From the NCBI RefSeq assembly GCF_964355755.1, contig NC_092680.1:15385045-15449044 (forward strand): 64,000 nt of DNA, written 5' to 3'. Under the pieces are notes generated by a model. The model did no database searches. It was given only the letters and a program-made list of their open reading frames with translations, and was not told the origin of the DNA. This stretch comes from Antedon mediterranea. Lineage: Eukaryota; Animalia; Echinodermata. The stretch's first letter is position 1; each line of letters begins with the position of its first letter. A program made the position numbers and the translations under genes. Shown here one piece after another: positions 5,901 through 64,000 of this stretch.

Positions 5901-8900
5901 CAGTATCATGAATATTCTAGAATAAGAGTATGTTTAGATTTAAGAAACCATGTATAATTAATAAGAACAATCAGGAACATTCCAGAAGTACTATTAATAG
6001 AAACTATAAACCAATAGAATAAGAAGTATAAGGAATGATCTAGAAGGTTATGAACATATTGTATATAAGGGGAAGTATGACAATTGTAAGAAGGGAAAAG
6101 GATTTTTTGATTGAAGCAGGTTGGATATTAGTTGTTGGATATTAGAGGTTGGATATTAGATTGTAAAAGTTATTGTGAAGCTGTTGTTTAAAGTGCTTAC
6201 TGGATTGTTGAAAGTTGAAGTTGATTGAAATTAAAGCTTTGTTTTGAGTTATTTTACAACTTTGTGGATTTTGTGTGTATATTTTTATGTCACAAGGGAG
6301 TTCCTAAAGTATTTTCAACCGCTCGGAAACATACGTAAGAGGAGTTCGTGACAATTATCGTAAAAATACATTGACTGTGACGTTTTCATTATATTGTTGA
6401 AATACACACAGGATTATTCTATACGTATATTTTTATTTTTCTACTCCTGTTAGTTCGAGGTGTAGTATGGAGGATCGATTCGACCTAGTGCATAGCACTT
6501 ATGGCAACCCCCATTGTACTTCACCGTTGTCTTTTGTTGTTTATTGTTTAACTGAAAATGGAATAAAATGAATGTAATACCAATAAAAAGGAAGCAGGCT
6601 CTTCCTCCTTCAATGCCTCTGTGACGTAATCGGCTAGGCCAGTCGCTGATTCCAATTTATCCTGGCAAGTTCTTATTTGATGTTGTAGAACTTCTAATTT
6701 TGACGTCATTGAAGATGTCACGTGCTCAGCCATCAAATGTTGGCGCTCTAAAATTAGAGCTTCGAGTTGGGCACATTCATTTGCAATTTGGCGTTTTAGA
6801 TCAGCAGCGTTGCTCTAAACAAAAGCATAAATTTATGAGGGAAAGTAATAATATAATTTTTTTTTAAACCATGTGGTTTAGTTATTAATTTACTTAAACA
6901 TTAGGCCTAATTATAAAAACTGAGGAATTTGATTTGCATTTAATAATGACAGTTAACGAATTGGATTTAAAGTTGATATAAAGTAATGTATCTATTTAAC
7001 CCATCAATATTATTTATTTCAAAAAGAATAGTAAATGCAACAAACCAAGATTATATAACAAAAAAATGTATTTAGGTCAAACTGTACTCATTTTGTGACT
7101 TTATTTTCGTAATTCTTTTTCTTTGTTTTGTGAACAGTTTGGTTGTCTTATTTTGTATACTTATTTCTACTTGGCCATCATAAATCTTAACGACTTTTGT
7201 GACGTGAATATGTATACTTACTTCAACGTTTGAGCATTTTCTTTTTAATGCTGAAATAAATAACTGTATTTCTTCGTTCTTTTTCTTGAGGCTGTCAAGT
7301 TCGTCGGAAAGAACGTCCTTATAGAAAAAAAAAGGAATTATGACTATTACAAAAAAAAAAGTATATTCTGTATAATGTTGTGCATGCATATGACAATCTA
7401 TTCACAATACAAACACAGGAGGCGCTATTATAGTTTTACCAGAAAGTCGGAGGTGTGATATATGTTCTAAATCGTGATATATGACCGGATTTGAACAAAG
7501 GACTCGATGATCATGATTATGCTATAACTCCACTTAAAAAGTCAAACTGGACGCACATTTTGAAGGGCGTTTTTTCATCAACATCATACAAGATTTTTAT
7601 ATTGAACATGTGCATTTTACGACATATTGACTTTCGCTTCCCTTTGCCACGTGTATCATCGGAAAAATCGATATAAATCAATTAATTCACTTAGATAAAT
7701 AAAGCAATATCCTATCGTATTTGTATGGTTACGGTGGTTTAACTATAACAATTTGACTACATGATTTGTTCGTTATATTGAATACTGTATAATTAATAAT
7801 GATACCGATATTTGAATCAACTGTTCACCCATACTCGTGATACTCGTGATAATTCTGCCTATACTATCAAACTAGTTTTTGAAAAAAGTATCATAACGAT
7901 TTATGTTTCTATCTATATTTTTTTTTCTGTCTATGTTTTCACTATGTTTCTATCAATGTTTTCACTATGTTTCTATCAATGTTTTCACATTGTTTCTATC
8001 TATGTTTTCATTATGTTTCTATCTATGTTTTCATTATGTTTCTATCTATGTTTTAACTATGTTTCTATCTATGTTTTAACTATGTTTCTATCAATGTTTT
8101 CACTATGTTTCTATCTATGTTTTAGTATGTTTCTATCTATGTTTTAACTATGTTTCTATCTATGTTTTCACTATGTTTCTATCTATGTTTTCATTATGTT
8201 TCTATCAATGTTTTCACTATGTTTCTATCTATGTTTTCACTATGTTTCTATCAATGTTTTCATTATGTTTCTATCTATGTTTTAACTATGTTTCTATCTA
8301 TGTTTCACTATGTTTCTATCTATGTTTTCACTATGTTTCTATCTATGTTTTAGTATGTTTCTATCTATGTTTTCACTATGTTTCTATCTATGTTTTAGTA
8401 TGTTTCTATCTATGTTTTCACTTTGTTTCTATCTATGTTTTCACTATGTTTCTATCTATGTTTTCACTATGTTTCTATCTATGTTTTCACTATGTTTCTA
8501 TCTATGTTTTCACTATGTTTCTATCTATGTTTTCACTATGTTTCTATCTATGTTTTCACTATGTTTCTATCTATGTTTTCAATAGGTTTCTATCTATGTA
8601 TTCGAGTTGTAAGATAAGAAAGAGCTTGAGTTTTAGGAATAGTTAAAGTTACAATATTTGTTACCCAAAAACAATAGGGTAAAATCCCCATTGCCCAGAA
8701 AATAAATTCACCAGCAGATATGCAAAACCAACTACTGAACAACTTGTGTTTTTGCAGATTTTGCCGAATGTTTTATTTTAATATTTTCAGTGAATTTATG
8801 ATTTTGTTGTTGTGATTCTGTTACATATTGTACATTTTATATCTAACATTTTTGCCTGTACTTGACTTTAAAGTATCAAACATTATAACTTGTTAGATAT

Positions 8901-11033: not shown

Positions 11034-12965
11034 TCAGATTGCCGTGCAACCAAATCCTTCCCAATCAAACGAACAAGATACGTCCGGTATCCATGTGACA
11101 TGGTCATCAGACATTTTACGTCTGTTTCTTAAAGACCTAGTTTCAGGTGCTTGTTTATTATGTTCCACCACTTTGGTTGACCAATACGTGGGTATATTGA
11201 AGCATTGATCAACGATTTCATCAACAACGACTGCTTTTAGGAACTCTGATGGAATCATGCCCTTTCTTTCGACATAAAACGATGGGGAGTTACCGTTGAA
11301 AAACTAGAGGTAGAGAAAATACGATGCATTAGCGTAGTTATTATTCACATTTACACTTCTTCAACCATCAATATGAAACTATATAAAATCGTCTATTATA
11401 ATTTAGAACATTGATTATTTAAAGATGACGTTTATATGCATTGAATTCTTTAAAATAATCGTTTTTCTTAGTTAAAAAAATACCGGAAAATACATACCTT
11501 ATTATGGTCGTGCCAAACCAAGTCATCATCTGCCCACAAATAACAGGCGCTGTTATTGACGCTGTAAGCTGCAACGAGTTTCTTTAAAAATAAAATAGAA
11601 TCGGATTTATGAAACTAAAGTGATCAAATTTGGTAGAATAAAACTAGAAGTATTTATTGCAACAAAGGACAATTTTCGTCAAATTTTAATTATCGGCTAT
11701 AAAATTTAAGGTTCGTCGACTGCTTTAGAATTTTACCTGGCTAAAATCAAATATAATTGTCCCTCCGTCAGTCACATTGGCAATTTGTTCAAATGTCAGA
11801 ATTTCCACAAGATGGCTGGGGTACGTATATACACTAATTGAGTGTGCTATTCCATCATCAACATAGTTTACTGTTCTGCACCGCGTCATCTAAGTAAAAT
11901 GAAACTGTTAATGATAACTTACATCATCGATAGGCTACATACGGTAGCTTACGTAATAAGATAAATAACTCACTAATACTATGTGATGCAATGTAGGCCT
12001 ATCATGATGTGTACACTTCTAGCATGTATAATGAATACAATTCAACGTATAATAAAGAAAGCCCAGAATAACTTAGATTGGTTTGTAATACCGCATTTGC
12101 ATTAAAGGTGAAACATTGTATACATTTAATAATAAGGTAGTAATAGTTGTATAGCGCCATTCCAACAATTATTACTCATATCGCTGTGGACGTAGATGTT
12201 ACACTCTTCAACTTACATGCTTCTTCGCTAAGGGTCACGCCGTGACAGTTGTAGCGCTACCTTACCTGTTATTTGATAGTTGCCGTGTAAGCAAGTACAC
12301 ACCGGGGTAATCAATCCCCTACCGTCTCGAACGATGTACAGATTATTTACAGTGCACACGAGCATTTTTTGTACACTGGACCTACGGTTTATTGTTCTTG
12401 TACGAGTCCTTATATCAAACACTTTTCGTTTTTTTTTATACAATCATAGGACTAATTGTAGGCTTGAAAAGTAAACATTTACAGGGGCTGGGTAAATTAT
12501 TGTATTGTTTTGATGTATATGTTAAATTGGATGCACCACTTCTGTTTGTGCCACCGATGCAAAGGTGTCATTTCCTAATAAATTATTATTATTTTTTTTT
12601 TATTTGTAAAATAGGCAATACTTAGAGGTATACATTATGCCACCAATTATATACCGTCAGCCTACAACAATAACAAGGTTTTACTTACGAAGTGTCTTGA
12701 CATAAGTACAATTGCTGCGACTACTCCAACAACCAGAAACAACACAAATAGGCCTACAGTTATGACAATGTGTTGCCGTTTCAATGAAGCGTTTTTAGTT
12801 AAGATTGGTTCCTAAAATAATAATGAGTTCAAGTTATAGAGTACTGACGATATCGATAGATTTCAGCTATTATACATTTAATTAAAAATATAAAAAAAAC
12901 TCCTTGATTTTTACCTGAGAATCTTCATTTGCCTTCTTTTCTGTTGAAATAGATGTTGGATACAT
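11034..12965 (-). CDS. Type II membrane BRICHOS-domain peptide precursor, copy A (about 226 aa)
   Basis: Five exons joined by phase-0 introns: 12965-12915 (MYPTSISTEKKANEDSQ), 12811-12689 (TM: IVITVGLFVLFLVVGVVAAIVLM), 11889-11737 (ends GGTIIFDFSQ), 11581-11498 (KLVAAYSVNNSACYLW), 11303-11034 (IVDQCFNIPTYW...RNRR KMSDDHVTWIPDVSCSFDWEGFGCTAI). The IFDF / AY / CY / C..PTYW motifs match the BRICHOS pattern. Confidence 0.85.
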
Positions 12966-29978: not shown

Positions 29979-32900
29979 TTAATTTGAATAATATTCAAAG
30001 TGTTTGTAATCGTCATCCCGGTTGATGTTGTTTTTAGAAATCTCTTTCGCTGATCGTTTATTTAGTGTACATGAAACCAAACCGCTGCCGTAGTTGCTAG
30101 GACTGATACTTAAAGATCGGCATTGTTCAGTCTGCTCACATAAGGTAAGACACGTGAGCAAAGACCTAACAGGCAATGCTGAATGGATATACTCAGACAC
30201 GAAGCTTATGTTGTCAAAGAAATGCATCACTCCCTTTAAGCCTGCAAAAGAAGAAATTATTAGAAGATTATTGTAGTCGTCAACAGGTGTGTTAAAGGTG
30301 CCATGGTAGATGTATCAGCAGTGATCTCAACTTGTATTATAATAGTCAGTAATAGCCATGTATGGCAGTAATTACAATTGTTGAAGAGAAACACTAATAC
30401 ATGTTAATGGTCTTATTAATATGCTTATACAACAACCATAAAGTATCCTATGTAACCATTATACTAATAAACTTACCTGTACACTGTAGTGGTCCTATTG
30501 TACTGGTACCATTTTCCGAAAAATGGCCTGTGTCACCATGTCGTAACTGAATCACCGGTAGGGTAGACATATCTTCAATATATCCATCGTCATATCTCAA
30601 AACCTTATCATTTCTGTTACATTCACACATTTCACTTAAATCGCTACAGTCACCTTTTATAAGAATTAGTAAATAAAATAGTATCACAAAATTGTTATTG
30701 GCGTTTGGGCAAAATGCTTTATGTATTGCTTTAGACGTTCATCGGTAAATGCTGATCTGTGATAATCTTTTGTATAGTAGAATTACTTTGAATAATTTTC
30801 AATTTATGTGATTTTTAGGTAGCGGCTTATACATAGACAGGTGTAACATCAAACTAACTACAGGCCATCTGATAAGAACGGAAAATACAGACGAGTAAAA
30901 TATTATGATGATAATTAATGTCAAACTATAGGTTTACCTCTATATCCACATGCGCAACCATAAAAGCCGATTGGACTTCCCCAGTTATACATTTTCGAAC
31001 CATCACGTGAAATCCAAAAACTGACAGGTACACCGATTGAATTAAAGCACTCATACTGTTAGGAAAAAAATTTACGAATATTCTACATTCAAATAAAATA
31101 GCCCAATGATTATGATACAGTATAGCTGCTACTTAATTAATCGTGATGGAATTTCTGTCTACATTTATATCAAATTTGACGAGCCCATATGGACATGATA
31201 ATGTCATAATTTGGCATATCACTGCCATATTTGAGTACATCACACTTATTTTGGTACATCATACTGTCAAACTAGTTTGTCATGAATACAATGACTATAG
31301 ACAGAAATTGACAATACAGTTGTTAATCTATGTCTCTCTCTCTCTTGGTAGTTCCTCCATTTATCATCAGACGAATCCTAACCCAATTCATAAATACCCA
31401 TACAAATAAAATAAATGTAATTGAGGTGGTGTTCATTCATGTTTTCCAATTTAGGATTTTTGATACAAATTTCTAGACATATCCGTTGTAGTAACTTTCT
31501 CTACATGGTGTGCATAGTACCAGCAGCAGAGAAAAATACAGCACAAAATTGTCACTTATAAATTTAGTTAACCATCTTCTACAACAATTTGATGATGGAA
31601 ATAATTCTATTGGCATATTTATAGACTTTATGAAAGCATTCGACACGATTAATCATGAAATATTAATATCTAAACTACAACACTATGGAATAAGAGGTCA
31701 ACCATTATATTGGTTAACCGACTATTTAAAAGGAGGATTTCAATACGTGGCTGCTGACCAAATTAGTTCTGATAAACTCCCAATCTCATGTGGAGTCCCA
31801 CAAGGATCAGTATTGGGTCCAACCCTGTTTCTGATCTACAAAAATGATATTTCTCATTCTAAAAAATGTTTTTGAATTTAGGCTGTTTGCAGATGATACT
31901 AATTTATTTCATGATTTCTCTGGCAATAATATTGATCTCTCTATAATTAATTATAATTTTCAACATGTCATTGAATGGTGCAATGCAAACAAATTAACTA
32001 TTAACGTTGGTAAAACAAAATTATATTGTATTCTGTAACAGGAATAAAAATGTTTCTACTAACGGTAATATATACGTAAAACATAAACAACTTAATGAAG
32101 CAGAAGAAGTAATGTTTGTTGGTGTTAAGATTGATAAACATTTAATCTGAAATATTCATATTAATGATGTTAAAAACAATATTAGAAAGAAGGCAGGCAT
32201 TTTATTTAAACTAAGATATGTTGTACCCACAAATATATTAATCTTATTATATAAAATGTTTATTCAACCAAGTATCACTTATGGCATAGAAGTTTGGGGT
32301 AGCACGTATAAAACATATTTACAACCTATTTGTGTCATTCAAAAAATGTGTATGCGGTGTATAACCTTTTCTGATTTTAATGCTTCGTCATCTCCGATAT
32401 TTAAGCAACTTAATATTTTAGATGTTCATAAACTATACGAATTATGTGTACTTAATTTTGTTTTTGATTTATATAATAGAAACTCTGCACATCAAATCAG
32501 TTATTATTTTAGTACAGTTGATCATTTACGAACTACTAGATTTAAACAAGGTAAAAACCTATCTATCCCAAAAGCCCGTACTATGGCAGGTCAATTTAGA
32601 ATTTCGTTTACTGGCACAAAATTTTGGAATAATTTATCACTCGACATAAAAAATAATACATCAAAAATTAATTTCGTAAAAAATATAACTGAACTACTAT
32701 TATCGAGATACTGATTAATGCTGGCCCACCTCTTTCTTTTTGTCATTATCGTGTGTTTTTTTTTTACATTATTGTATAATTATATTATCAAAATCGTTTG
32801 CACTGAACAGTATTATATTTGTTAATCAGGTGTAAACCATTGACTAGCGAAAGCTATTTGTTTATACCGTTTTGCCTTTGGTGAATAAAGAATTATGAGA

Positions 32901-38433: not shown

Positions 38434-41063
38434 TTACTGGCATGTACATACTTTCCAATTAAACGAACAAACTACAGTCCCGTTATTTCGCGGATTTTCT
38501 GAAAACCGGATTCCAATGTTTCCATTAAGTTCTGTGGTTTTAATTGACCAGTATGTGGTCATACCGCAACATTGGTCAACGATTTCTTCACTAGCAAGCC
38601 CTGTCAGGTACTCTGGTGATATTATGTCCTGTCGTTCGACATTAAACGATGGAAAGTTACCATTGTACAACTGTAGGCAAATAAAATATTAAATAATTAT
38701 AAATATGATTTTAATGACATAACCATAAAATGTAGGCCTATGCATACAATTAGGAAACAAATCTTGCTTAAACATAATGGTAAAAAAACGCAAAATGCCT
38801 AATATAATAGACTTATAGAAGGAAGTAGCTATATTTATTTGTAGATATATTTTAGCAAACTTAAAATGTTCATTATTTGTACTTCCACCTTTGAATATAC
38901 ACACTACAGGTAATTGTGCTAGTGACAAAAGCACGGCCATATTGTTTGGAAAGAAAACACCGTCACAATCAAATTGTACAGAACAAGCTATTGCACAGCA
39001 TAATAGGTTTACATTACGATATTTATACACATAAATTGTCACTAATATGGTTTTAGGAATGACTTATATTTGCAGATATTTAGGTTTGCTAATCGCATGC
39101 ACATTGTGACGTTAACATTATTGTATCTTATTTTGTATGTTTTGCTTTTTGTTATTTTTCTGGTTTTCACACTTGTAATTTTAACAAATACATACCCAGT
39201 CACGATTATGCCAATTCAAGTTCTCGTCTGCCCACAAATAACAAGCGCTGTTTTGGGCGCTGTAAGCCGCAATGATTTTCTAAATTAATAAACATAAAGA
39301 ATAAAGATAAATAATAAAGAGTCTTAATACTTACAATATTATTGACATACATTATTGAACTAGTATTCTTCTTAATTTTTATTTTATGCTTTTAAACATA
39401 TTTCAAAGATATAGTTTAATGTCTTAAGACTCTTACGTGGTAAAAATCAAATATAAGTGTTCCTCCGTCAGTCACATTTGCTATTTGTTCAAATATCACA
39501 ATCTCTACATGGTGGCTGGGGTACGTATATACATCCATTGAGTGTGAGATCCCATCGTCTATATAATCTACGGTTCCACACCATCCAGTTCCCTAAATTT
39601 ACAACAATTACCATTTGTACATTATAGGTATACAAGTAAAAATAAACAGGGGCATATGAATTGCTTATGTAATGCCAGACATGAGCACACCGTGGCTAAA
39701 TAAAGCTATATTGTTAGTTTTAGTTCATTTACTATATAAAAATAATGGTACACATAATGTCATGAGGTGAAACATGAAATTATATTTCACGAGACGAAGC
39801 CTTAGTGAAAAATAATTTTATATTTACCGAAAAAAATTATTTTTACCACTGCATAAATATAAAACACTCAATTATATTGTTTTATATAAAAAATAAGTAT
39901 ATGGATTCTTTTCTTTGCCATTAAAATAAATAGTACGTACTATTGCACGCCATATGACTCACAATTGAAAATATATAATACTGTATATTACACACTATAT
40001 CATGTCAATATTGGCAGAATAAAGCATTTACTCTGCACTCTTAAAATATTATTAAATAATAAACAAAATACAAGTTTCTGTCTTTAAGGTATAACCTATC
40101 TACTAAAGAGCAAACGAAAGATAAACGTTCTAGAGATGTGCTTTGACAATGATTTATAAGAGGATGACCTAATATAATGAATGAACACATTCAGCCTAAT
40201 CCACGTCTTCTAACAAATTCTTTACATAATTATCTACTTACCATCGTAAGCATTATTGCTGTAACCACGCCACAAACTAGGAAAAACAGCACCAAAGAAA
40301 TAACAATTACCTTCTTTTTCAAAGATGCTTTTTTCTTCACGATTGGTTTCTTCTATAAGTATATAATATAATAATGTATTATTTATTAACTTATTTTTTA
40401 TGTCACCTTAAAAATGTTTAAAAGTGGTACTGATTTTTAATATGAGTAACCGGATAAATAATTAGTAATAAAAATAGTAATAGTATTTTCCTATACTATG
40501 AAGGTTTCGATTTTTATAATTTAAAACAAGAACAATGCTTCACATGTACATAAATGAGATTCAATTTTTATGAATTTCCTATTTATTTTTATGAATTTCC
40601 TATCTTATGACATTACAAGAGATTCTGTAGCATCATTTTTGTTATGCTTCACCGCTGTCAAATGTAAATATTTTATAATAACAATATACATTGTTTTCCC
40701 TGAAATTAACCTTAATATTTAGTCAACGATTTTTCTTTTATTTATCAAAAGCATGGATCTTACAGAAGAAAATAAATTCCAACCACACGGCACTTATTTG
40801 ATCGTTTACAGCACTGTGAAACTACATTTTAATATACTATGGTACGTTCGCTTCGCTCGCGTACCATAGGTCGTGCTCACAGATGGTTCTCGAATACACA
40901 GTAATTTCAGCGTTTTTTTGTATATGTGTTAAACAATACGATTTCTGCAGCCTTCTTTTAAAGAGACAGTTTTAAATGAATACCTATAATCCTATACCTC
41001 AATATTTACTTGAGTTTCGTCTACATTTGTCTTCTTTTCTTTCGTAATTGTTTTTGGAAACAT
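38434..41063 (-). CDS. Type II membrane BRICHOS-domain peptide precursor, copy B (about 217 aa)
   Basis: Exons joined by phase-0 introns: 41063-40998 (MFPKTITKEKK..), 40352-40242 (TM VIVISLVLFFLVCGVVTAIMLTM), 39592-39437 (ends GGTLIFDFYH), 39279-39196 (KIIAAYSAQNSACYLW), 38670-38434 (IVDQCCGMTTYW...NPRNNGTVVCSFNWKVCTCQ). All introns are GT-AG and the frame is open. Confidence 0.86.
40835..40915 (-). mobile_element. Helitron 3'-end fragment (same family as 55754-58786)
   Basis: ATGGTACGTTCGCTTCGCTCGCGTACCAT hairpin followed by CACAGATGGTTCTCGAATAC. Confidence 0.7.
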
Positions 41064-41790: not shown

Positions 41791-42288
41791 TAAGGAAAAT
41801 ATTATATACAGTAGCTATAAAATTATAGTAAATATATGACATGAACATAACATTATTAAATGAAAGGGATACCTCTTGTTTAAATGTTGTTTAATGGTAA
41901 AAAAAGGTCTTTACGGAATCAATACACGACATACTTCCTCTACAGAGTGCACAATTGTTTACTTAATTCATATCGACTGTATTCATAATTTATATACAAC
42001 AGAGAATTCATTGGTGTGTAACAAAATAATTTGTGGCAGAAAACTGAATATTCAAACTTTTATCATATTAATTTTAAAAGTTTGAGGTTATGTTTTCACT
42101 CCTTTAAGATTTTTTTTCAATAAAATCTCTCCTAACTTGTGAATCTACTTAATTTTATCAAAATGGTGCTTTAGTTTAAATTATGTTTAAAAATGGTCAT
42201 GGTTTTGTCAACACCAATATTATCAAAATTGTGATTTGGGGCTGCATAAATCTAAATCTGAAAACGTAGCAATGATGCGAAGTTTGTG

Positions 42289-42519
42289 ATGGCGGAGGAG
42301 GATTGTGCCGTGTGTTATGCCAATCTGAACTCTGGTGTTAGGTGGAGTTGTAGTCAATGCAGACTAATACTCCATTTAAAATGCATTGTGCGATGGTGTA
42401 GTACGTCAGATACATGTCCACAATGTAGGCTTGTAATAGCCAACCCATCGAGTATTGATGAGATACAGTTTGCAGAATCCGATAGAGGTTGGATCCGTAC
42501 TTATGATTTCTACACTTGA
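42289..42519 (+). CDS. Small intronless RING-finger protein (C4HC3 ligand pattern), 76 aa
   Basis: CAVC-x11-CSQC-x4-HLKC...W...CPQCR; ATG in good context (GTGATGGCG). May be a retrocopy, a TE-derived or viral fragment, or an isolated exon. Confidence 0.65.
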   Translation: MAEEDCAVCYANLNSGVRWSCSQCRLILHLKCIVRWCSTSDTCPQCRLVIANPSSIDEIQFAESDRGWIRTYDFYT

Positions 42520-43459
42520 TAAATGGGTAAAACAAATTCACTTGGAATAAGTGAATTTTTTTTAAACAATTATTTATAATTGTTTTTATTATTTTCACTG
42601 TATGTCTTCAATCCTTAAGAATATTATTATACAGTTTTGGTATTATTTTATTATATCATGAGAAAGATATGTGTCAGGATTGATTTAAGTAGCTCACAAG
42701 CGTCGACGGATAACAAGATCTTCACTTACTATATTCAACAATCACCCTTATTGGTGGTAGACAACGTGTTATAACGCATGGCATATAGGCCTATTTGTTT
42801 ATTGATACCATTATTTAATGGTTTGTATACGTCGAGATACCGTTGATATTTCATAATAACGTGTGATTATGACTATGAATGTTAAGAACAGTTAAAGAAG
42901 AAATACACCTAATGTGCTTTGTAATCATCATCACCATGCTTCAACATCAACAATACAAGCATCATCACAATCTTTAATTTAACCGTCATAATCATTCCAG
43001 ATTCCAATTTAAAGAAATAACAATAATATACTGATAAACGCAATAATCTTTATCAAATATTTATTTCTTCATACAAAATCATTACGAATAATGTGAGCGT
43101 TGTTGTGACAGGATTAATTTATCTTAATGTCACAAGAAACTGACAATTTTAACATTCTTTTTACTTTTTTATTTGCCTCTGGGTAACAATGAAATACGTG
43201 GAAAAAAGTAAGTTAACTAGGTTGAAAACGATAGAATCAAAATAATGGTTTTATTAAATAAAAATGTTATGTTGTTTTTTTCTTTATTTATTTAATCACA
43301 CTATTGTTTACAAGACCAGGCTTATGGATGAACAGATATATAAAATAACAATTGAAATATAACACTAAACCTCAACATCTTTTTATCCCGAGTAGAAGGG
43401 GAAAAGGAACATTGGCATGTAGTCCTGGGCCTATTAGTCAAAATCACCAAATTCTCTTA

Positions 43460-44910
43460 GCAAAATAAAGTTATCATAAGCCTACTTTTAGTACAGTATC
43501 TTTTCTTGTAGGCCTACGCGTTTTACTGTACTGGCTATGGCATGTTTAATTTAATTCAACGAACAAACTACGCTGTCTCGTTGTTTTTCTGATTTTTTGA
43601 AAGCCAGATCTCAATGTTTTAATTAAGTTTTATGGTTTTAATTGACCAGTATGCATGCAACATTGGTCAATTCTTCACCATCAAGTCATGTTAGGAATTA
43701 CTATATACTATGTGCTTTCTTTCGAAAGTTTTTAAAAAAACTATTTTAATAAACTCTTAAAATATATTATCCTTTAATCATAATGGCAAAATATCGTATG
43801 CTATTGGTTCCGGACGACTATATGTTTAATACACAGGACAAGTATGTACTTGATAACTTTCGTCACTGGTGACCAATGGCAGACGGTATCTATTAATATG
43901 CTCGATAATAATAACAACTTTATTTAAAAACGGATGCAACACTTGAATCACCATATTGGTGTTTTTCACAAGGCCGTTACTTACTACAAAACTATTTATA
44001 CTATTACACAAGTTATCATTTACAGTACAAAAACAACAACAACAACAACAACAACAACAAAAAAGATTTCATGTAAAAAATATAGAGTTTCAAGTATATT
44101 TTATCTTTGGTCATTTATCATTTTTTTAAATATATGTATATTAGGAGCTGTAATTGCATTTGAGTTTATAGCATTTAAACTATTCCATAGCAACGGTGAA
44201 CCATATATATAGGCCTACATAGTAACGGTTACAGACTCGGGTGCGATATTAAACGATGTAAAACTGTAGGCAAAGTTAAATAATTAATTAAAAATATTAT
44301 TAATATTATTATTATAATGATATGAACATAAGTTGAATAAATAAATTAAGGAATACATCTTTCCTAATAGTAAAAACACCCCAAGAGATCAATTTACGGT
44401 ACACCATGTATTTCTATTATACTATAGACTTATAGAAGGAAGTAGCTAAAGTTATTTTAGCAAACCTTACATTTACGTATTATAATTGTCATCATTTGTA
44501 CTTTAACCTATGAGTATATACATTACAGACTAATGTCCTAGTGACAAAAGCATTGCCAGGCCATTGTTTGGTAAGAAAGAAAGCACCGTCACAATCAAAA
44601 GAATTGTGCTGGGCCAGTTATTACACAGCAAAACTGTTTATAAAAGGTTTACAAAAGAATATTTTTAGACATTAAAATAAGTGTTTGGTTTCAGGGCTAC
44701 TAACGTTTGCAAATATTTAGGTTTTCTATTTGCATGCGCATTGTGACGTCAACAGTTGTATCTTATATTGAATTTTGTATGTCTTTTTTTCTGAAATAAC
44801 AAGCTTCTCAATTCAATTCATTCACATTATTTAGCATGGATCTTAAAGAAGAAATTAAATTCTAAACACACGGCACTTACTTAATCTTTTACGGCACGTG
44901 AAAATACTTT
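43460..44910 (-). pseudogene. BRICHOS-family pseudogene (degraded exon 5, intron 4 and intron 1 remnants)
   Basis: GGTTTTAATTGACCAGTATG, CAACATTGGTCAA, TAGAAGGAAGTAGCT, AGTGACAAAAGCA and AGCATGGATCTTA..ACACGGCACTTA match copy B; contains stops and indels. Confidence 0.78.
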
Positions 44911-52874: not shown

Positions 52875-53395
52875 TTTTTAATTTACTGGCATTACATAAT
52901 TTCCAATGAAACGTGGACTGTAGAGTGCCCTCATAAATGATTTTTCTTTATTAGATTATGAACTATGATTATGACGAGGTCTTCGTGTACTCTGGCGTAC
53001 CAGAAATCTTCTGTTTGGTGGTCGATTAAATGTCACTAATAGATTAATTAAGCACCTGTGCGATTCCTCAATACGTGATATTGATATTGTCTTTGATCGA
53101 CTGTAATATTGTTAAATCTAAAAAACGTTTAAAGCTATTTTGTCATATTTATATATTTATATTGTTTATCAGAACTTAAATTGATTTGAGAAAAAACCCC
53201 AAATATTCTATAAGTCTTGGTTTTCGCGGATTTGCAAAGACAAGTCAAATCCCAATGTTACAATTACGTTCCATTGTTTTAATTGACCAGTTATGTGACG
53301 AACGATTTCTTCACTAGCAAGTTATGTTATGTATTCTGGCGATATTATGTGTTTTCTTTCGACATTAAACGATGGAAAGATACCGTTGAACACAG
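52875..53395 (-). pseudogene. BRICHOS-family terminal exon relic, split by an insertion
   Basis: TTCGACATTAAACGATGGAAAG, GATTTCTTCACTAGCAAG and GTTTTAATTGACCAGT at 53270-53390; TTTAATTTACTGGCAT..TTCCAAT (peptide end, reads GTLQSTFHWKLC) at 52877-52930. Confidence 0.75.
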
Positions 53396-54969: not shown

Positions 54970-57900
54970 TTACTGGCATGTACATACTTTCCAATTAAAT
55001 GAGCAAACTACAGTCCCGTTGTCTCGCGTATTTTCTGAAAACCGGATTCCAATGTTTCCATTAAGTTCTGTGGTTTTAATTGACCAGTATGTAGTCATAC
55101 CGCAACATTGGTCAACAATTTCTTCACTAGCAAGCCCTGTCAGGTACTCTGGTGATATTATGTCCTGTCGTTCGACATTAAACGATGGAAAGTTACCATT
55201 GTACAACTGTAGGCAAATAAAATATTAAATAATTATAAATATGATTGTAATGAATGAAATAAAAATTAAATACAATTCTTGGTTATTGGTAAAAAAAATA
55301 TCAAAACTTGGAAACAGGTTTTTCGCCACACCGGGTATACCTAATATGCCACTTATAGAAGGAAGTAGTTAAGGTTGACATATTTTAGCAAACCTTACAT
55401 TTAATTATAATGTTCATTATTCGTACTTCCACCTTTGAATATACACACCACAGTCAATTGTGCTAGTGACAAAAGCACGGCCATATTGTTTGGAAAGAAA
55501 ACACCGTCACAATCAAATTGTACAGGTCCTGTTGTAAACAAATACATACCCAGTCATGGTTATACCAATCCAAGTCCTCGTCTGCCCACAAATAACAAGC
55601 GCTGTTATTGGCACTGTAAGCCGCAATGATTTTCTAAATGAATAAAAATACTAAAAATAATCTGAATACTTGCAATAATACGGTGGTAATTTAATGAACC
55701 ATTGTAATTAATTTTTATTTTAGGCCTTTAAAAATAGTTCAAATTGATGTATACTAGATGGCACGCTCGCTTCGCTCGCGTACCATCTAGGTCGTGCCCA
55801 CAGATGGTTCTCGAATACACAGTATTTCCAGCGAGAAAAAAATGGAGATTTCAAATGTATACGTACCGCAGGACTATAATACATTGTCGTTTACAGAAAC
55901 GAATAAATATACACAATGATTTATGTAGTCAACCAAAATTAGCACCCTGGGAATTACTTCCGAGAGAGAAACAAAATGAGTCAAATTTTTTTATTTGGAC
56001 TCATTTAAACAAACCCAATTTGTGTTTTGTATGTAACATTAAGGGTTGAGGGATGGGGGAAGAAGATAGGTACAAAGAGGAAACATTTTAAAATATATTC
56101 TTATCCACTCAGTAACGAAATATTGTTTTTAATGTTTTATAGGCCTATAAATAATATACCACTAAATACAGTAAAACATTTACGATTTAATACGGTACTT
56201 TGTTAAAACTCTCACTGTCATAGTCGATTGAAATAGTAAAGTACATGTAACGATACACCACTACGACGTTTATATATTTTTAAATTATTAATTAATACAA
56301 ACGTTGAGAAGCAACTGTCAGTAATAACGTTTATTTATTTGTATATTATATGTTTATAATCTAACAGTAGGGCCTACCCACACTCACAGTAATAAAGTTT
56401 ATTTGTATATATTTTTATATTACATCTAACAGTACCAACACTCACAGTAAGAAATTTGCGATTAAAATTGGGATCAAAAGTGGTTAATACCTTAACAGTA
56501 TTGTACAGCATTGCAATACTATTTATGTTTATTCTCCAAGGGGGCCCATAAATCTAAATCTATACCTCTATGGTTAAACCAAATAATGTGGAATGTTTAT
56601 TTGTATATTATATGTTTATAATCTAACAGTAGGGCCTACCCACACTCACAGTAATAAAGTTTATTTGTATATATTTTTATATTACATCTAACAGTACCAA
56701 CACTCACAGTAAGAAATTTGCGATTCAAATTGCGATCAAAAGTGGTTAATACCTTAACAGTATTGTACAGCATTGCAATACTATTTATGTTCATTCTCCA
56801 AGGGGGCCCATAAATCTAAATCTATACCTGTATGGTTAAACCAAATAATTTGGAATGTTCCATTCATCACAAATCAATACATTTGTAAAAACGTATATTA
56901 AATGTATCAAAATAGTATTTTTTAAAGAAAATCGGCCTGTCTTCAACATTATGATGGTGTACTCTAGCTGTTCAACCGGTTTTCAGCCATTAAAAACAAT
57001 TATCGTAGGAGGAGATAGGAAAATGCGAAGCCTCCTCGCATTTTTGTGGCGGGTATTTTTCAAGACGGACATCCATTATACAGTGTATACCACGGTTGGA
57101 AAACACCCCTATTTGGGGCAAATCTTGGAACCTAAATTCGTTTTAACCGTCAATAACTTATTATCTAACTTAATTTAATTAGTAAACAGGGTTACATCAG
57201 GTGGTTAAAATCAGTACCGAAAGTACGAACCAACTTTATATACCATCGAGTAAAAATTATAGAAGTAAGGCGCGATTTACCGAATTTTGCCCTTACGTAA
57301 ATTTATATATAGACTAGATGGTACGCTCGCTTCGCTCGCGTACCATCTAGGTCGTGCCCACAGATGGTTCTCGAATACATAATAATTTCAGCGTTAAAAA
57401 ACTGGCGATTTCAAATGTACGTACCGCAGGACAATAATACATGTCGTTTACAGGAACGAATAAATAGACACTGTGATTTATGTACTGAACTAAAATTACC
57501 ACCCTGGGAATTACTTCCGAAAGAGAAACTTGTCACAAAATGAGACCAATTGTTTAAGTCAAATTTAAACAAACTTAATTTGTGTTTTGTATGTAACGTT
57601 AGGGTTGAGGGATGGGAAAGAGGATGGGTGCAAAGAAGAACAATTTTTAAATATATTCTTTATCCATGTAGTAACGAAATATTAATTGTTTACATGTTTT
57701 ACAAATAATATACCACTAAACACAGTAAAACATTGCGATGTAATACTTTGTTGAAACTATCACCGTCCTAGTCGATTGAAATAGTATAGTACATGTAACG
57801 ATACATCACTACGACGTGTATAATATGTTTATATAATGTAAAACAATTTGTGAAAACCACCCCTATTCGTGGCAAATCATAAATTCGATTTAATCGTCAA

Positions 57901-59498
57901 TAAATATTAAATTATCTAACTCAACTTAATTAGTAGGCCTAATGGTTTTCAATTGTTTCTTAGAGCCAATTCATACTTAAGTTGGTTCCTAACCCTACCC
58001 ACCAAAGTTGTTCTGCGTTTAGAGCATGTGATGCACCGTAGGCCTATCCTCTACTGGCTTTACAACGCTACTCATGCCAGTGAGGGAAGGGTGATGATGT
58101 CACGTGGGTGGTTTAACTGCAATAATAAAGATTTGTACATAATATACGGCGACTGAAAACGCTAGCTCATTATCCGTTAAAAAAAAACTATATCCAACCT
58201 CCGCAGGACAGATTGAAAAAAAAATGGATCGAATTTCTGTTATGAGTATACACATGGACCTCCATGGTATACAGTACTTGCCTTTACGACGCCTGAGGGA
58301 ATAGACACTTGTGGAACAGAGATTGGAATGTTCCATTCATTTCAAATCAATACATTTGCATAAACGTATATTAAATCTATCAAAATAGTATTTTTTAAAG
58401 AAAATCGGCCTGTCTTCAACATTATGATACTGTACTCGAGCTGTTCAACCGGTTTTCAGCTATTAAAAACAATTATCGTAGGAGGAGATAGGAAAATGCG
58501 AAGCCTCCTCGAATTTTTGTGGCGGGTATTTTTCAAGATGGACATCCATTAGACAGTGTATACCACGATCGGAAAACACCCCTATTTGGGGCAAATCGTT
58601 GAACCTAAATTCGTTTTAATCGTCAATAACTAATTATCGAACTCAATTTAATTAGTAAACAGGGTTACATCAGGCGGTTAAAATCAGTACCGAAAGTACC
58701 AACCAACTTTATATACCATCGAGTAAACATTCTAGAAATAACGCGCGATTTACCGAATTTTGCCCTTACGTAAATTTATATATAGATTATACTCATATTA
58801 TAGTCTTACGTTGTAAAAATCAAATATAAGTGTTCCTCCGTCAGTCACATTTTCTATTTGTTCAAATATCACAATCTGTACATGGTGGCTGGGGTACGAA
58901 TATACATCCATTGAGTGCCTTATCCCATCATCTACGACTCCGCACCTAAAGACCCTCTAAATAAAATGATAGTTGCTAATTAATTAGCTTGGATAATAAA
59001 ACGAAATAAAATAAAATATTATTTTTGTTGTTGTTTAGTTCTGTTTAGCTTTTAAAAAACCCTACAGTACATATAGAATTTTACTTAATGTACTAAGGTA
59101 AGGTTGTGTGTCTTTTTTTCACGGTCTACAAACAATTTATTTGTGATATAGGCCTACCATTGTTATACCTCTATGTATATACTTACACGTTCTCGGGTAA
59201 GAACGATTGCTGCAACCACACCGCATATTATGATCAACACCAACGGAATACAGATACCAATTATTTTATTCTTTCGAGAAGTTCGTTTGGTCACGATTAG
59301 TTTCTGAAATGACAATCAAATTCTTAGCCTATCGTTTGCAATACCAACCTAAACTTTACCTACTTGCAGGAAACATACAAACTTCAGATTTCGATTTTAA
59401 AACTACGTGGTTAAGTTAATTAGTAAACGTACCTCAATGTTAACTTGAGTTTCGCTTTCATTTTTCTTCTTTTCGTTCACAATCGTTTTCGGAAACAT
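54970..59498 (-). CDS. Type II membrane BRICHOS-domain peptide precursor, copy C (about 216 aa)
   Basis: Exons joined by phase-0 introns: 59498-59433 (MFPKTIVNEKKK..), 59303-59187 (TM IIGICIPLVLIIICGVVAAIVL), 58956-58810 (ends GGTLIFDFYN), 55633-55550 (KIIAAYSANNSACYLW), 55206-54970 (..DQCCGMTTYW..NTRDNGTVVCSFNWKVCTCQ). Confidence 0.86.
55754..58786 (-). mobile_element. Two non-autonomous Helitrons head-to-tail (55754-57313 and 57314-58786) in intron 3 of BRICHOS copy C
   Basis: On the minus strand each unit starts TCTATATATAAAT and ends with a GCGAGCGAAGCGAGC-containing hairpin plus CTAG. The insertion is at A|T with no TSD, and the junction is CTAG|TC. Confidence 0.85.
56330..56860. repeat. 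Tandem duplication of about 265 bp inside the Helitron
   Basis: TTTATTTGTATATTATATGTTTATAATCTAACAGTAGGGCC...GGTTAAACCAAATAAT occurs twice in succession. Confidence 0.9.
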
Positions 59499-62842: not shown

Positions 62843-63830
62843 ATGTTATCGCGTGTAGAATTAAGAGGTACTAACTCATTTATATGGTGTACACAACATG
62901 CGATCGGAAAGGGAGCGACTGCTACTGTCTACATTGGTCGAAATAAAGTAAGTAAGCCAAATTTTTCCACTTGTTTATATAAAGTATACATTTCATGACA
63001 CATAATATTCTAAAACTGTTAGGTAAATTCCCGAATCCCGAGAATAATGAAATGACTAATGGGAATTCCCCTTATTAGTCACGCTAATAGAGGGCGCTAT
63101 ATATAAAAATAACTAAACACTATCTCATACAGGCTAGGTTTAGTGCTTATTTAGTGCGGATAAAAAGTGACAAATTTCATTTTAATTTATTGAATTATTT
63201 GCATATAATAGACATAGTTAATCGTGGTACTTTAAGGCTGTACACAATACAAAACAGTGCAAAATCACGACAAAAAAGGTCGCATCATTCTCTTATATTC
63301 AGTACAATATTTAAATAGTATGCAACATGTGATTGATTGGGTCTTGCAAAATTGAATTTGTTTTTTTAGTATCTTATAAAATATAAATCAAATGTTCTCA
63401 ATTCCAACAAGACGTGGAACATAATTAAAAATAGAATACGTTTTTTCCAACTTATCTTTACCCGGCCCGGAAAATCATATAATACTTACGGTACTGAAAG
63501 TGAGAATACTTTCAAACAAAATACTGTATCACTATTATTATTGTTTTTGTTTTCTATAGAAAACTGGCGAGAAAGTAGCAATGAAAGTATTCAACAACTT
63601 ACCACATGTTCGAACACGTGATACACAGATGAGGGAATTAGAAGTCGTTAGAAAACTGAAACATAAAAACATCGTAGACGTGATTGCCATTGAAGAAGAT
63701 CACGTGTCTAAACAACCAGTCATGGTGATGGAACTGTGTCTCGGCGGCTCGTTATTACAGTATCTTGACAAACCGGCAAACAATTACGGCCTGACAGAGG
63801 ACGAGTTTATACGAGCTTTAAAAGATATAA
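62843..63830 (+). CDS. TBK1: TBK1/IKK-epsilon serine/threonine kinase, 5' partial (continues beyond the window)
   Basis: Exon 62843-62947 MLSRVELRGTNSFIWCTQHAIGKGATATVYIGRNK; exon 63560-63830 KTGEKVAMKVFN..RELEVVRKLKHKNIV..IEE..VMELCLGGSL..LDKPANNYGLTEDEF. These motifs are characteristic of the TBK1/IKKe subfamily. Confidence 0.9.
63061..63070. promoter_or_regulatory. Perfect NF-kappaB consensus site GGGAATTCCC in the first intron of the TBK1 coding region
   Basis: Exact palindromic kB site in AT-rich DNA; function untested. Confidence 0.5.
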
Positions 63831-64000
63831 GTAAGTATGAATAGGCCTAATCATTAAAGATGTATTGTTCCCAAAATCAACAAATTAATTAAAAAAAGAC
63901 TTTGAATAGGCAATTTCGCAGTTTTATTAAAGTTACTCACTTTCGTAGAAAAAAATATATAAATAAATGTTTTCACTTGTAAAAAGAAAAAAAAACGGTT

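Follow-up and report, generated by a model that had tools for sequence, protein, structure and literature searches.

The window analysed here, 64,000 nucleotides of the feather star Antedon mediterranea, holds three intact five-exon genes on the minus strand (genes A, B and C), and all of their introns are GT-AG and phase 0. The original prediction had singled out a recurring core motif built around a C-x8-C ring. The motif does recur, matching at three places when the window is read in all six frames and at none in 30 mononucleotide shuffles, and these places are the homologous last exons of the three genes. The single ring was an incomplete description, since copies B and C have three cysteines in this region and one of them is left unpaired.

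Gene A, 12965-11034, minus strand: five exons, 226 aa, database protein XP_071965374.1
Gene A exon 1, 12915..12965, minus strand: start codon; intron 1 not bridged by an RNA contig
Gene A exon 2, 12689..12811, minus strand: transmembrane helix, residues 36-54; in a spliced contig
Gene A exon 3, 11737..11889, minus strand: linker Cys62, first strands, Asp106; in a spliced contig
Gene A exon 4, 11498..11581, minus strand: Cys122; in a spliced contig
Gene A exon 5, 11034..11303, minus strand: latter part (second half) of the BRICHOS domain with Cys171, then linker, furin-type site and tail; in a spliced contig of run X1
Gene B, 38434..41063, minus strand: exons 41063-40998, 40352-40242, 39592-39437, 39279-39196 and 38670-38434; 217 aa
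Gene C, 54970..59498, minus strand: exons 59498-59433, 59303-59187, 58956-58810, 55633-55550 and 55206-54970; 216 aa
Decayed B-like copy of exon 5, 43417..43725, minus strand: frameshifts and stops; a match to B-like intron 4 at 44414-44793
Second decayed copy of exon 5, B/C-like, 53222..53392, minus strand: an extra piece at 52876-52913

Each gene model has a database protein of the same length in Antedon mediterranea (226, 217 and 216 aa; XP_071965374.1, XP_071964722.1 and XP_071965365.1), the first being identical to the gene A model. Two further paralogs of the same species are in the database, here called D (XP_071965114.1) and E (XP_071964707.1); the contig recorded for them has a length identical to that of the present one (22,273,604), by which they would lie on the same contig. 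Transcription was judged from one public run of one study with no tissue recorded (X1), which we treated as RNA because its contigs skip introns. A 996-base contig skips introns 2, 3 and 4 of gene A exactly and covers exon 5 without letter differences. Gene B shows joints at 4/4 of its introns, with the flag 'between: not known' on two, and spliced contigs carry C-specific letters at 39526, at 41029 and at the end of exon 3. Intron 1 of gene A is unbridged in X1 and C's own exon-5 letters are missing there, but the contigs collapse variants, so neither gap is evidence of absence. The cluster consists of real, transcribed and uncharacterised BRICHOS genes.

Genes B and C may have a mixed history. 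Their synonymous divergence (dS) is 0.11 in exon 5, 0.46 in exon 1 and 0.79 in exon 2; because they are nearly identical in exon 5 and not in exons 1 and 2, gene conversion or partial re-duplication may have taken place. Intron 3 measures 0.16 kb in A and B but 3.2 kb in gene C (55741-58789), where it contains internal duplications that are 83-98% identical. This large intron, together with the fall in dS from exon 2 to exon 5, suggests that gene C is a chimera or was partly converted by B. We rejected an assembly artefact as the source of the B/C pair: exons 1, 3 and 4 are 83-91% identical, the two genes have different introns, and the reads contain both sets of letters. Both decayed copies of exon 5 lie between genes B and C.

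The same interval holds two single-exon open reading frames on the minus strand (48448-48107 and 46318-45896; 114 and 141 codons) that are 36% identical (E 3e-24). They match no Pfam family, and their common Cys/His motifs suggest a zinc site. A TRIM-like gene (9575-2941, minus strand; RING, two B-boxes, a probable coiled coil, FN3 and SPRY exons) ends 1.5 kb from gene A and includes about 700 bases of short-period tandem repeat (7901-8603). Elsewhere there are exons of an Ig plus EGF protein (24078-19747, minus strand) and of a PAN-domain protein (33746-29982, minus strand), a broken LINE-type reverse transcriptase fragment (31495-32711, plus strand), a small RING-H2 open frame (42262-42516, plus strand) and a 389-codon open frame with NHL repeats (52245-51079, minus strand), near which no RING was seen on the minus strand. 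A protein kinase exon (63560-63841, plus strand) may be of the TBK1/IKK-epsilon kind. The neighbouring TRIM and kinase genes were not counted toward an immune role for the cluster.

The BRICHOS domain and its relatives

All five paralogs share an N-terminal 19-residue segment with a mean hydropathy of 2.4-3.3, located within residues 36-57 and preceded by basic residues (5/5); it is a helix in both structural models. The ectodomains that follow are acidic (net -7 to -14). Whole proteins match the Pfam BRICHOS profile (PF04089) with 19.2, 15.9, 15.5 and 13.0 bits for A, B, C and D, all 4/4 scanned being under the gathering score of 25 and the best E value being 0.0015. Single exons gave no BRICHOS match to Pfam (0/8), so that only whole proteins matched, below threshold. 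The profile is narrow here, for PF04089 is found in no more than 45% of the nearest Atlas cluster. That cluster, the first Atlas match (0.95), is a mostly molluscan group of 228-aa BRICHOS proteins, and the top family matches are BRICHOS in 10/10 cases. An ITM2 cluster ranks first for D (0.88), and ITM2 clusters rank third to fourth for A.

Fold searches used the model of copy B (pLDDT 57.7 overall and about 55-80 over residues 71-180), in which the order of strands and helices is that of BRICHOS; the model of A is poor overall (pLDDT 38.6). Foldseek placed Bri2 and proSP-C BRICHOS chains at ranks 1-7 (E 0.009-0.06, none reaching 0.001). VIA ranked proSP-C first of 48,161 chains with Z 6.8 (rmsd 3.4, 73 residues aligned; next 5.0), a Z below 8, which may reflect a common arrangement. 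Searches of PDB sequences found nothing significant, the profile reaching the Bri2 domain at E 0.32. In the alignments Cys122 and Cys171 are invariant in 8/8 proteins (5 crinoid, 3 limpet), and Asp106 is kept in 5/5 crinoid proteins and aligns with an Asp of the Bri2 domain, which we take to be D148. The domain is likely to have the BRICHOS fold. None of the tests is decisive alone, and we hold the assignment safe because four weak ones (Pfam, Atlas, Foldseek and VIA) agree and are joined by the two invariant cysteines and the Asp.

The nearest relatives found outside Antedon are four consecutive loci of the limpet Patella caerulea (SNE40_021667-021670; E 9e-4, hhalign probability 96% over 80 columns). 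They share the layout, the length and a basic site (R-D-K-R) with the crinoid proteins, and their consecutive locus tags suggest a tandem array. The limpet genes are near-identical to one another and would form an array separate from that of Antedon. The limpet tail has 19 aa and net +1; unlike the crinoid tails it has one Cys and lacks the cysteine register described below. Overall identity is about 25%, and these proteins are uncharacterised too. No close relative was found outside Antedon by word-based or single-sequence searches, which bound the range of the family only loosely, and no annelid precursor was among the matches. A match to an 1810-aa repeat protein (E 9e-7) was dropped as due to chance, and a 139-aa truncated limpet copy was omitted from the alignments.

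A tree restricted to the 5 crinoid and 3 limpet proteins groups B with C (support 100/99) and D with E (100/100), with A placed at 86/85. Across the 8 between-subfamily pairs, identity is 8-46% in the hairpin against 46-63% in the domain. A tandem echinoderm expansion with fast-diverging tails is new, the pattern being otherwise described for polychaete antibiotics, and so is the variant seen in B and C (no site, an odd cysteine in the tail and one more in the domain). Fast divergence of the tails also fits relaxed constraint.

Predicted cleavage site and tail of copy A

The interval that carries the site and tail of copy A is the final 32 codons of the minus-strand exon 11303-11034.

Gene A furin-type site, 11118..11129, minus strand: R196-N-R-R199, the next residue being Lys200
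Gene A tail, 11034..11117, minus strand: K200-I226 plus stop; 27 aa, net -4

The tail codons are 11117-11037 and the stop is 11036-11034. Translation of the minus strand bore out the original counts for this copy, that is, R-N-R-R followed by 27 residues with 5 acidic residues and 1 Lys; the tail also has 1 His and 2 Cys (Cys214 and Cys223). From its sequence we consider the release of this tail by furin-type cleavage likely. Furin disfavours Lys at P1', and copy A may therefore be cut one residue later, or slowly. Over all cuts from the domain to the first tail cysteine (Cys214) the highest net charge is 0, so that processing at another site would not yield a cationic peptide from A. The corresponding maxima are +2 in B and D and +1 in C.

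Across A-E the net tail charges are -4, +1, 0, -2 and 0, which agrees with the earlier description of the mature peptides as anionic or near neutral as far as the numbers go. The word anionic says too much for A, since 17.7% of 20,000 random 27-mers drawn from the composition of its own ectodomain match its acidity (P=0.18) and there is hence no sign of selection for acidity, and the term mature peptide is unsupported for B and C (see below). What copy A shows is the absence of the cationic enrichment of the antibiotics, and 'not cationic' is the safe wording. Its mean beta propensity (1.01) and hydropathy (-0.03) are both unremarkable.

The five tails can be placed in one ten-residue register counted from the first ring cysteine, in which positions 0, 2, 7 and 9 are each Cys or Phe, except for a Val at 9 in E. 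We placed it by hand from the cysteine spacing, MAFFT having put the D and E tails out of register (Cys2 on Cys0). Copy D has Cys at all four positions. In A, 0 and 9 are Cys, and Phe occupies 2 and 7. In B and C, 2 is Phe and the other three (0, 7 and 9) are Cys; E has Val at 9 and Cys at the remaining 0, 2 and 7. An aromatic residue, Trp or Tyr, stands at position 4 in 5/5, and A, B and C carry Trp in the turn. An alternative register for B and C, with Cys0 and Cys7 paired and Cys9 free, may apply instead. In a two-residue hairpin with cross-strand disulfides, pairing of 0 with 9 and of 2 with 7 is the usual geometry. Both models predict these pairs, with the turn at 4-5 and strands at 207-210/213-216 (B) and 212-217/220-225 (A), at a tail pLDDT of about 30-35. 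The pairs coincide with the four cysteines of D, whose nested spacing fits a hairpin; in copy A, Cys214 is predicted to face Cys223, and Phe216 to face Phe221.

Residues of the set V, I, T, F, W, Y and C make up 44-77% of the tails, a composition that would favour self-association, with A as the weakest case. The tail of E has a run of six Val/Ile and a hydropathy of +1.47 and is the most aggregation-prone of the five; the run recalls the poly-Val client of proSP-C described in PMC10182729.

Our best explanation, which we regard as somewhat probable, is that the acidic 27-residue tail of copy A is cut off by a furin-type protease as a disulfide-closed hairpin and acts outside the cell by beta-sheet self-assembly or target binding, not by charge-driven membrane lysis. 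Among the three modes that the original prediction had offered (functional amyloid, metal-dependent peptide or receptor ligand), amyloid-like self-assembly would be the best of three. The -4 charge of A counts against it by opposing self-assembly. Metal dependence is weak as a family trait, for the Asp-Asp-His stretch sits in an extension found only in A (1/5 paralogs).

That stretch matters to a second reading, in which the tails would be direct antimicrobial peptides in spite of their charge, with Zn or Ca of sea water bridging the acidic residues of A to a bacterial surface. The precursors do have the layout of polychaete BRICHOS antibiotics, and 5/13 of those of Heteromastus are likewise transmembrane as given in PMC10745061. 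The ring spacing 0:9 equals that of the inner disulfide of arenicin-3 (Cys7-Cys16), and 2:7 that of nicomicin (Cys24-Cys29), both as given in PMC6780910. Yet all 27/27 hairpin antimicrobial families compiled in PMC13001179 are cationic, poor in Asp, Glu and His and without Trp in their loops, as opposed to the Trp turns of A, B and C; a net-zero nicomicin fragment is reported as inactive in PMC6265681; and the His-containing extension is confined to 1/5 paralogs. We consider this reading quite unlikely, and charge-driven lysis by the tails unlikely.

The aromatic turn bears on a third reading, that the tails are paracrine signalling ligands of the host for a receptor family, with one partner for each paralog. 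A short disulfide loop that is released by a convertase and exposes an aromatic turn residue is a common ligand design, and the crinoid loops fit it (Trp/Tyr at position 4 in 5/5). In mammals, BRICHOS tails like that of chondromodulin have effects on host cells, which also speaks for this reading. Peptide ligands are usually conserved above their prodomain, however, and the reverse holds here; none of the C-termini of A-E carries an amidation signal; and no close relative was found outside Antedon in the searches described above. A ligand role is on these grounds very unlikely, and we continue to favour a released hairpin that assembles or binds a target.

Altered site and extra cysteines in copies B and C

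Copy B, 38434..38499, minus strand: decayed convertase site E-N-P-R (38499-38488) and a 17-aa tail with sequon and Cys 207/214/216
Copy B, 38566..38568, minus strand: extra Cys174 beside the second BRICHOS Cys; A, D and E have none here
Copy C, 54970..55035, minus strand: decayed convertase site E-N-T-R and a 17-aa tail with sequon and Cys 206/213/215
Copy C, 55102..55104, minus strand: extra Cys173 beside the second BRICHOS Cys

As described earlier, B and C have a single Arg before a tail with an N-G-T sequon (17 aa, net +1 and 0). Processing at this Arg is improbable, as there is no R-x-x-R and no dibasic pair after the domain in either copy. An R-x-K/R-R site is present at the homologous place in A, D, E and the 3 full-length limpet relatives, whereas the codons of B and C there encode neither an Arg at P4 nor a basic residue at P2. 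As the limpet has the site, and so do the two remaining crinoid branches, its loss in B and C is the simplest reading. The single Arg would then be the remnant of a decayed furin site, and the tails of B and C are probably not released. The sequon lies two residues past the remaining Arg, and a glycan there would hinder cleavage.

Between B and C the 78-codon exon 5 differs by only two amino-acid changes, both in the decayed site, and all 13 hairpin residues are kept, with two silent changes there; these are small numbers from an exon that looks recently homogenised. They bear on a further explanation, in which the tail would be only a folding client and plug (a role that Bri23 may also have), the working product would be the shed or surface-held BRICHOS domain acting as an extracellular chaperone, and tail charge would be incidental. 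Bri23, the released peptide of Bri2, has 3 acidic and 2 basic residues (net -1, counted by eye) and a C-x16-C ring (PMC13575134) and is described as not antimicrobial in PMC6780910, so that a near-neutral tail without such activity has a precedent. The charge of the crinoid tails ranges from -4 to +1 over the five paralogs, that of A lying within its own composition. PMC11168071 gives a KD of 9.5 uM for the binding of Bri23 to its own domain, models the peptide on face A as a hairpin, and reports that occupation of that face cuts anti-amyloid activity and spares chaperoning against amorphous aggregation.

Gene C also has a second furin-type motif (R-E-R-R, residues 59-62, spanning the exon 2/3 junction) just past the membrane helix, which could shed the whole ectodomain, although it may lie too near the membrane for cleavage. 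The retention of every hairpin residue in B and C, with both amino-acid changes falling in the decayed site, tells against a mere plug as far as such small numbers can, and repeated duplication with divergent tails would be unexpected for a housekeeping chaperone. We judge this explanation unlikely; the preferred account of copy A as the source of a released hairpin keeps the plug for B and C.

Loss of the site, an odd tail cysteine and an extra domain cysteine coincide in B and C, which suggests a disulfide tether between tail and domain; the coincidence, however, amounts to a single evolutionary event. As a general rule the tether fails, because E has an odd tail cysteine without the extra domain cysteine. 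Two observations count against it in B and C themselves. A, B and C each have a further free cysteine in the linker (62, 64 and 66), and the extra domain cysteine comes after helix 2, while the groove for the client (face A, as described in PMC11168071) is on the side of helix 1.

In its boldest form, A, D and E would release non-cationic hairpins that form an amyloid-like defence net, and B and C, having lost the furin site, would have gained Cys214 (tail) and Cys174 (domain) to lock a glycosylated hairpin to its own chaperone until redox release, so that feather stars would independently have made BRICHOS a peptide-delivery family. We find this decidedly unlikely; if true, it would be a covalently plugged, redox-released form of BRICHOS.

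Function and comparison with known systems

The preferred reading can be set out as a series of steps. A type II membrane-anchored protein with a likely BRICHOS chaperone domain carries the tail of A; by analogy with Bri2, the domain would keep a sticky hairpin folded until convertase cleavage in the secretory pathway. A, D and E would release their tails, and B and C, with the site lost, would retain theirs as a plug on the domain. Once free, the hairpin may self-assemble into beta-sheet or bind a target outside the cell. The faster divergence of the tails than of the domain, and the dead copies within the cluster, speak for a role that faces outwards and changes fast, and the annelid BRICHOS peptides show the same defence-like pattern of evolution in PMC6780910. 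A use of the freed peptides in host defence or in a surface barrier is the least certain part of this account, and we put it forward tentatively, as somewhat doubtful.

The crinoid proteins resemble ITM2B/Bri2 in having a type II anchor, a linker, an acidic BRICHOS domain (net -7 to -14) with an Asp and two Cys, a furin-type site and a short C-terminal tail of near-neutral charge (Bri23 -1), predicted here to be a disulfide hairpin; the wider BRICHOS proprotein plan is described in PMC9714404 and PMC2751770. They differ from Bri2 in their marginal sequence similarity (E 0.32), in a C-x8-C instead of a C-x16-C ring and in the missing site of B and C. ITM2 tails are described as conserved in PMC2751770, unlike those of the tandem crinoid paralogs, which diverge fast. 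The same source gives the ITM2 C-terminal region, linker included, as net positive (up to +6 in ITM2A), which speaks against near-neutral charge as a rule, and it includes a two-sequence echinoderm/amphioxus BRICHOS group.

With the BRICHOS antimicrobial peptides of polychaetes (arenicin, alvinellacin, capitellacin, nicomicin and HfBRI) the family shares a conserved prodomain, divergent tails behind a basic site (disulfide hairpins, predicted ones in the crinoid) and a multigene organisation. Phase-0 introns number 4/5 in the alvinellacin gene (PMC4002450) and 4/4 in the crinoid genes, a comparison by phase and not by position. Some polychaete precursors are transmembrane, as here, and some polychaete tails likewise are non-cationic or have odd cysteines: those of HfBRI-75 and HfBRI-91 are non-cationic and contain 11 Cys, while a single Cys stands alone in HfBRI-54 (PMC10745061).

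The crinoid tails depart from the polychaete peptides in charge and composition. Six BRICHOS antimicrobial peptides tabulated in PMC6780910 (Table 4), which describes the group from polychaetes only, span +3 to +6 and are Arg-rich, in contrast to -4 to +1 here, and no sequence link was found; the predicted difference from arenicin-type cationic peptides is supported. The wider hairpin class in PMC13001179 (27 families, 11-25 residues, net +1 to +8, Arg-enriched) is not matched either: A has 27 aa and -4, and only the hypothetical tail of B reaches +1, through one Lys.

Protegrin-1 has the spacing C-x-C-x4-C-x-C, and protegrins are made from cathelicidin precursors. Paralog D has the same spacing at net -2, a geometry that we regard as convergent. 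Protegrins are Arg-rich and amidated in PMC13001179.

The original prediction stressed the lack of positive charge, but Bri23 (-1), HfBRI-75 and HfBRI-91 are non-cationic as well, and such a tail is ordinary among BRICHOS proteins. The charge contrast is the least surprising part of the finding, and its apparent surprise rested on the wrong comparator. The crinoid family is, by its sequence features, a member of the BRICHOS superfamily with a Bri2-type proprotein plan. It is outside the arenicin-type antimicrobial family, because the cationic charge that defines the latter was looked for in the tails and not found. Among the listed papers on BRICHOS in echinoderms or sea urchin and on arenicin, with thin coverage of subscription journals, we found no description of this family. 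Two sources may bear on novelty: the supplementary tree of PMC9627735, which covers 2019 BRICHOS domains, and Datafile 1 of PMC13001179.

BRICHOS defence peptides, so far described from polychaetes alone, have been mined through their cationic tails, so that non-cationic families such as the present one would be passed over. The five paralogs of this animal share one scaffold, while their tails range in charge from -4 to +1 and in cysteine number from two to four; they form a natural series on client recognition and on the function, if any, of free tails. Copies B and C provide a natural 'uncleaved' state to be compared with the engineered Bri2-Bri23 fusion. The lineage-specific expansion and this uncleaved, odd-cysteine form are the parts worth bench time.
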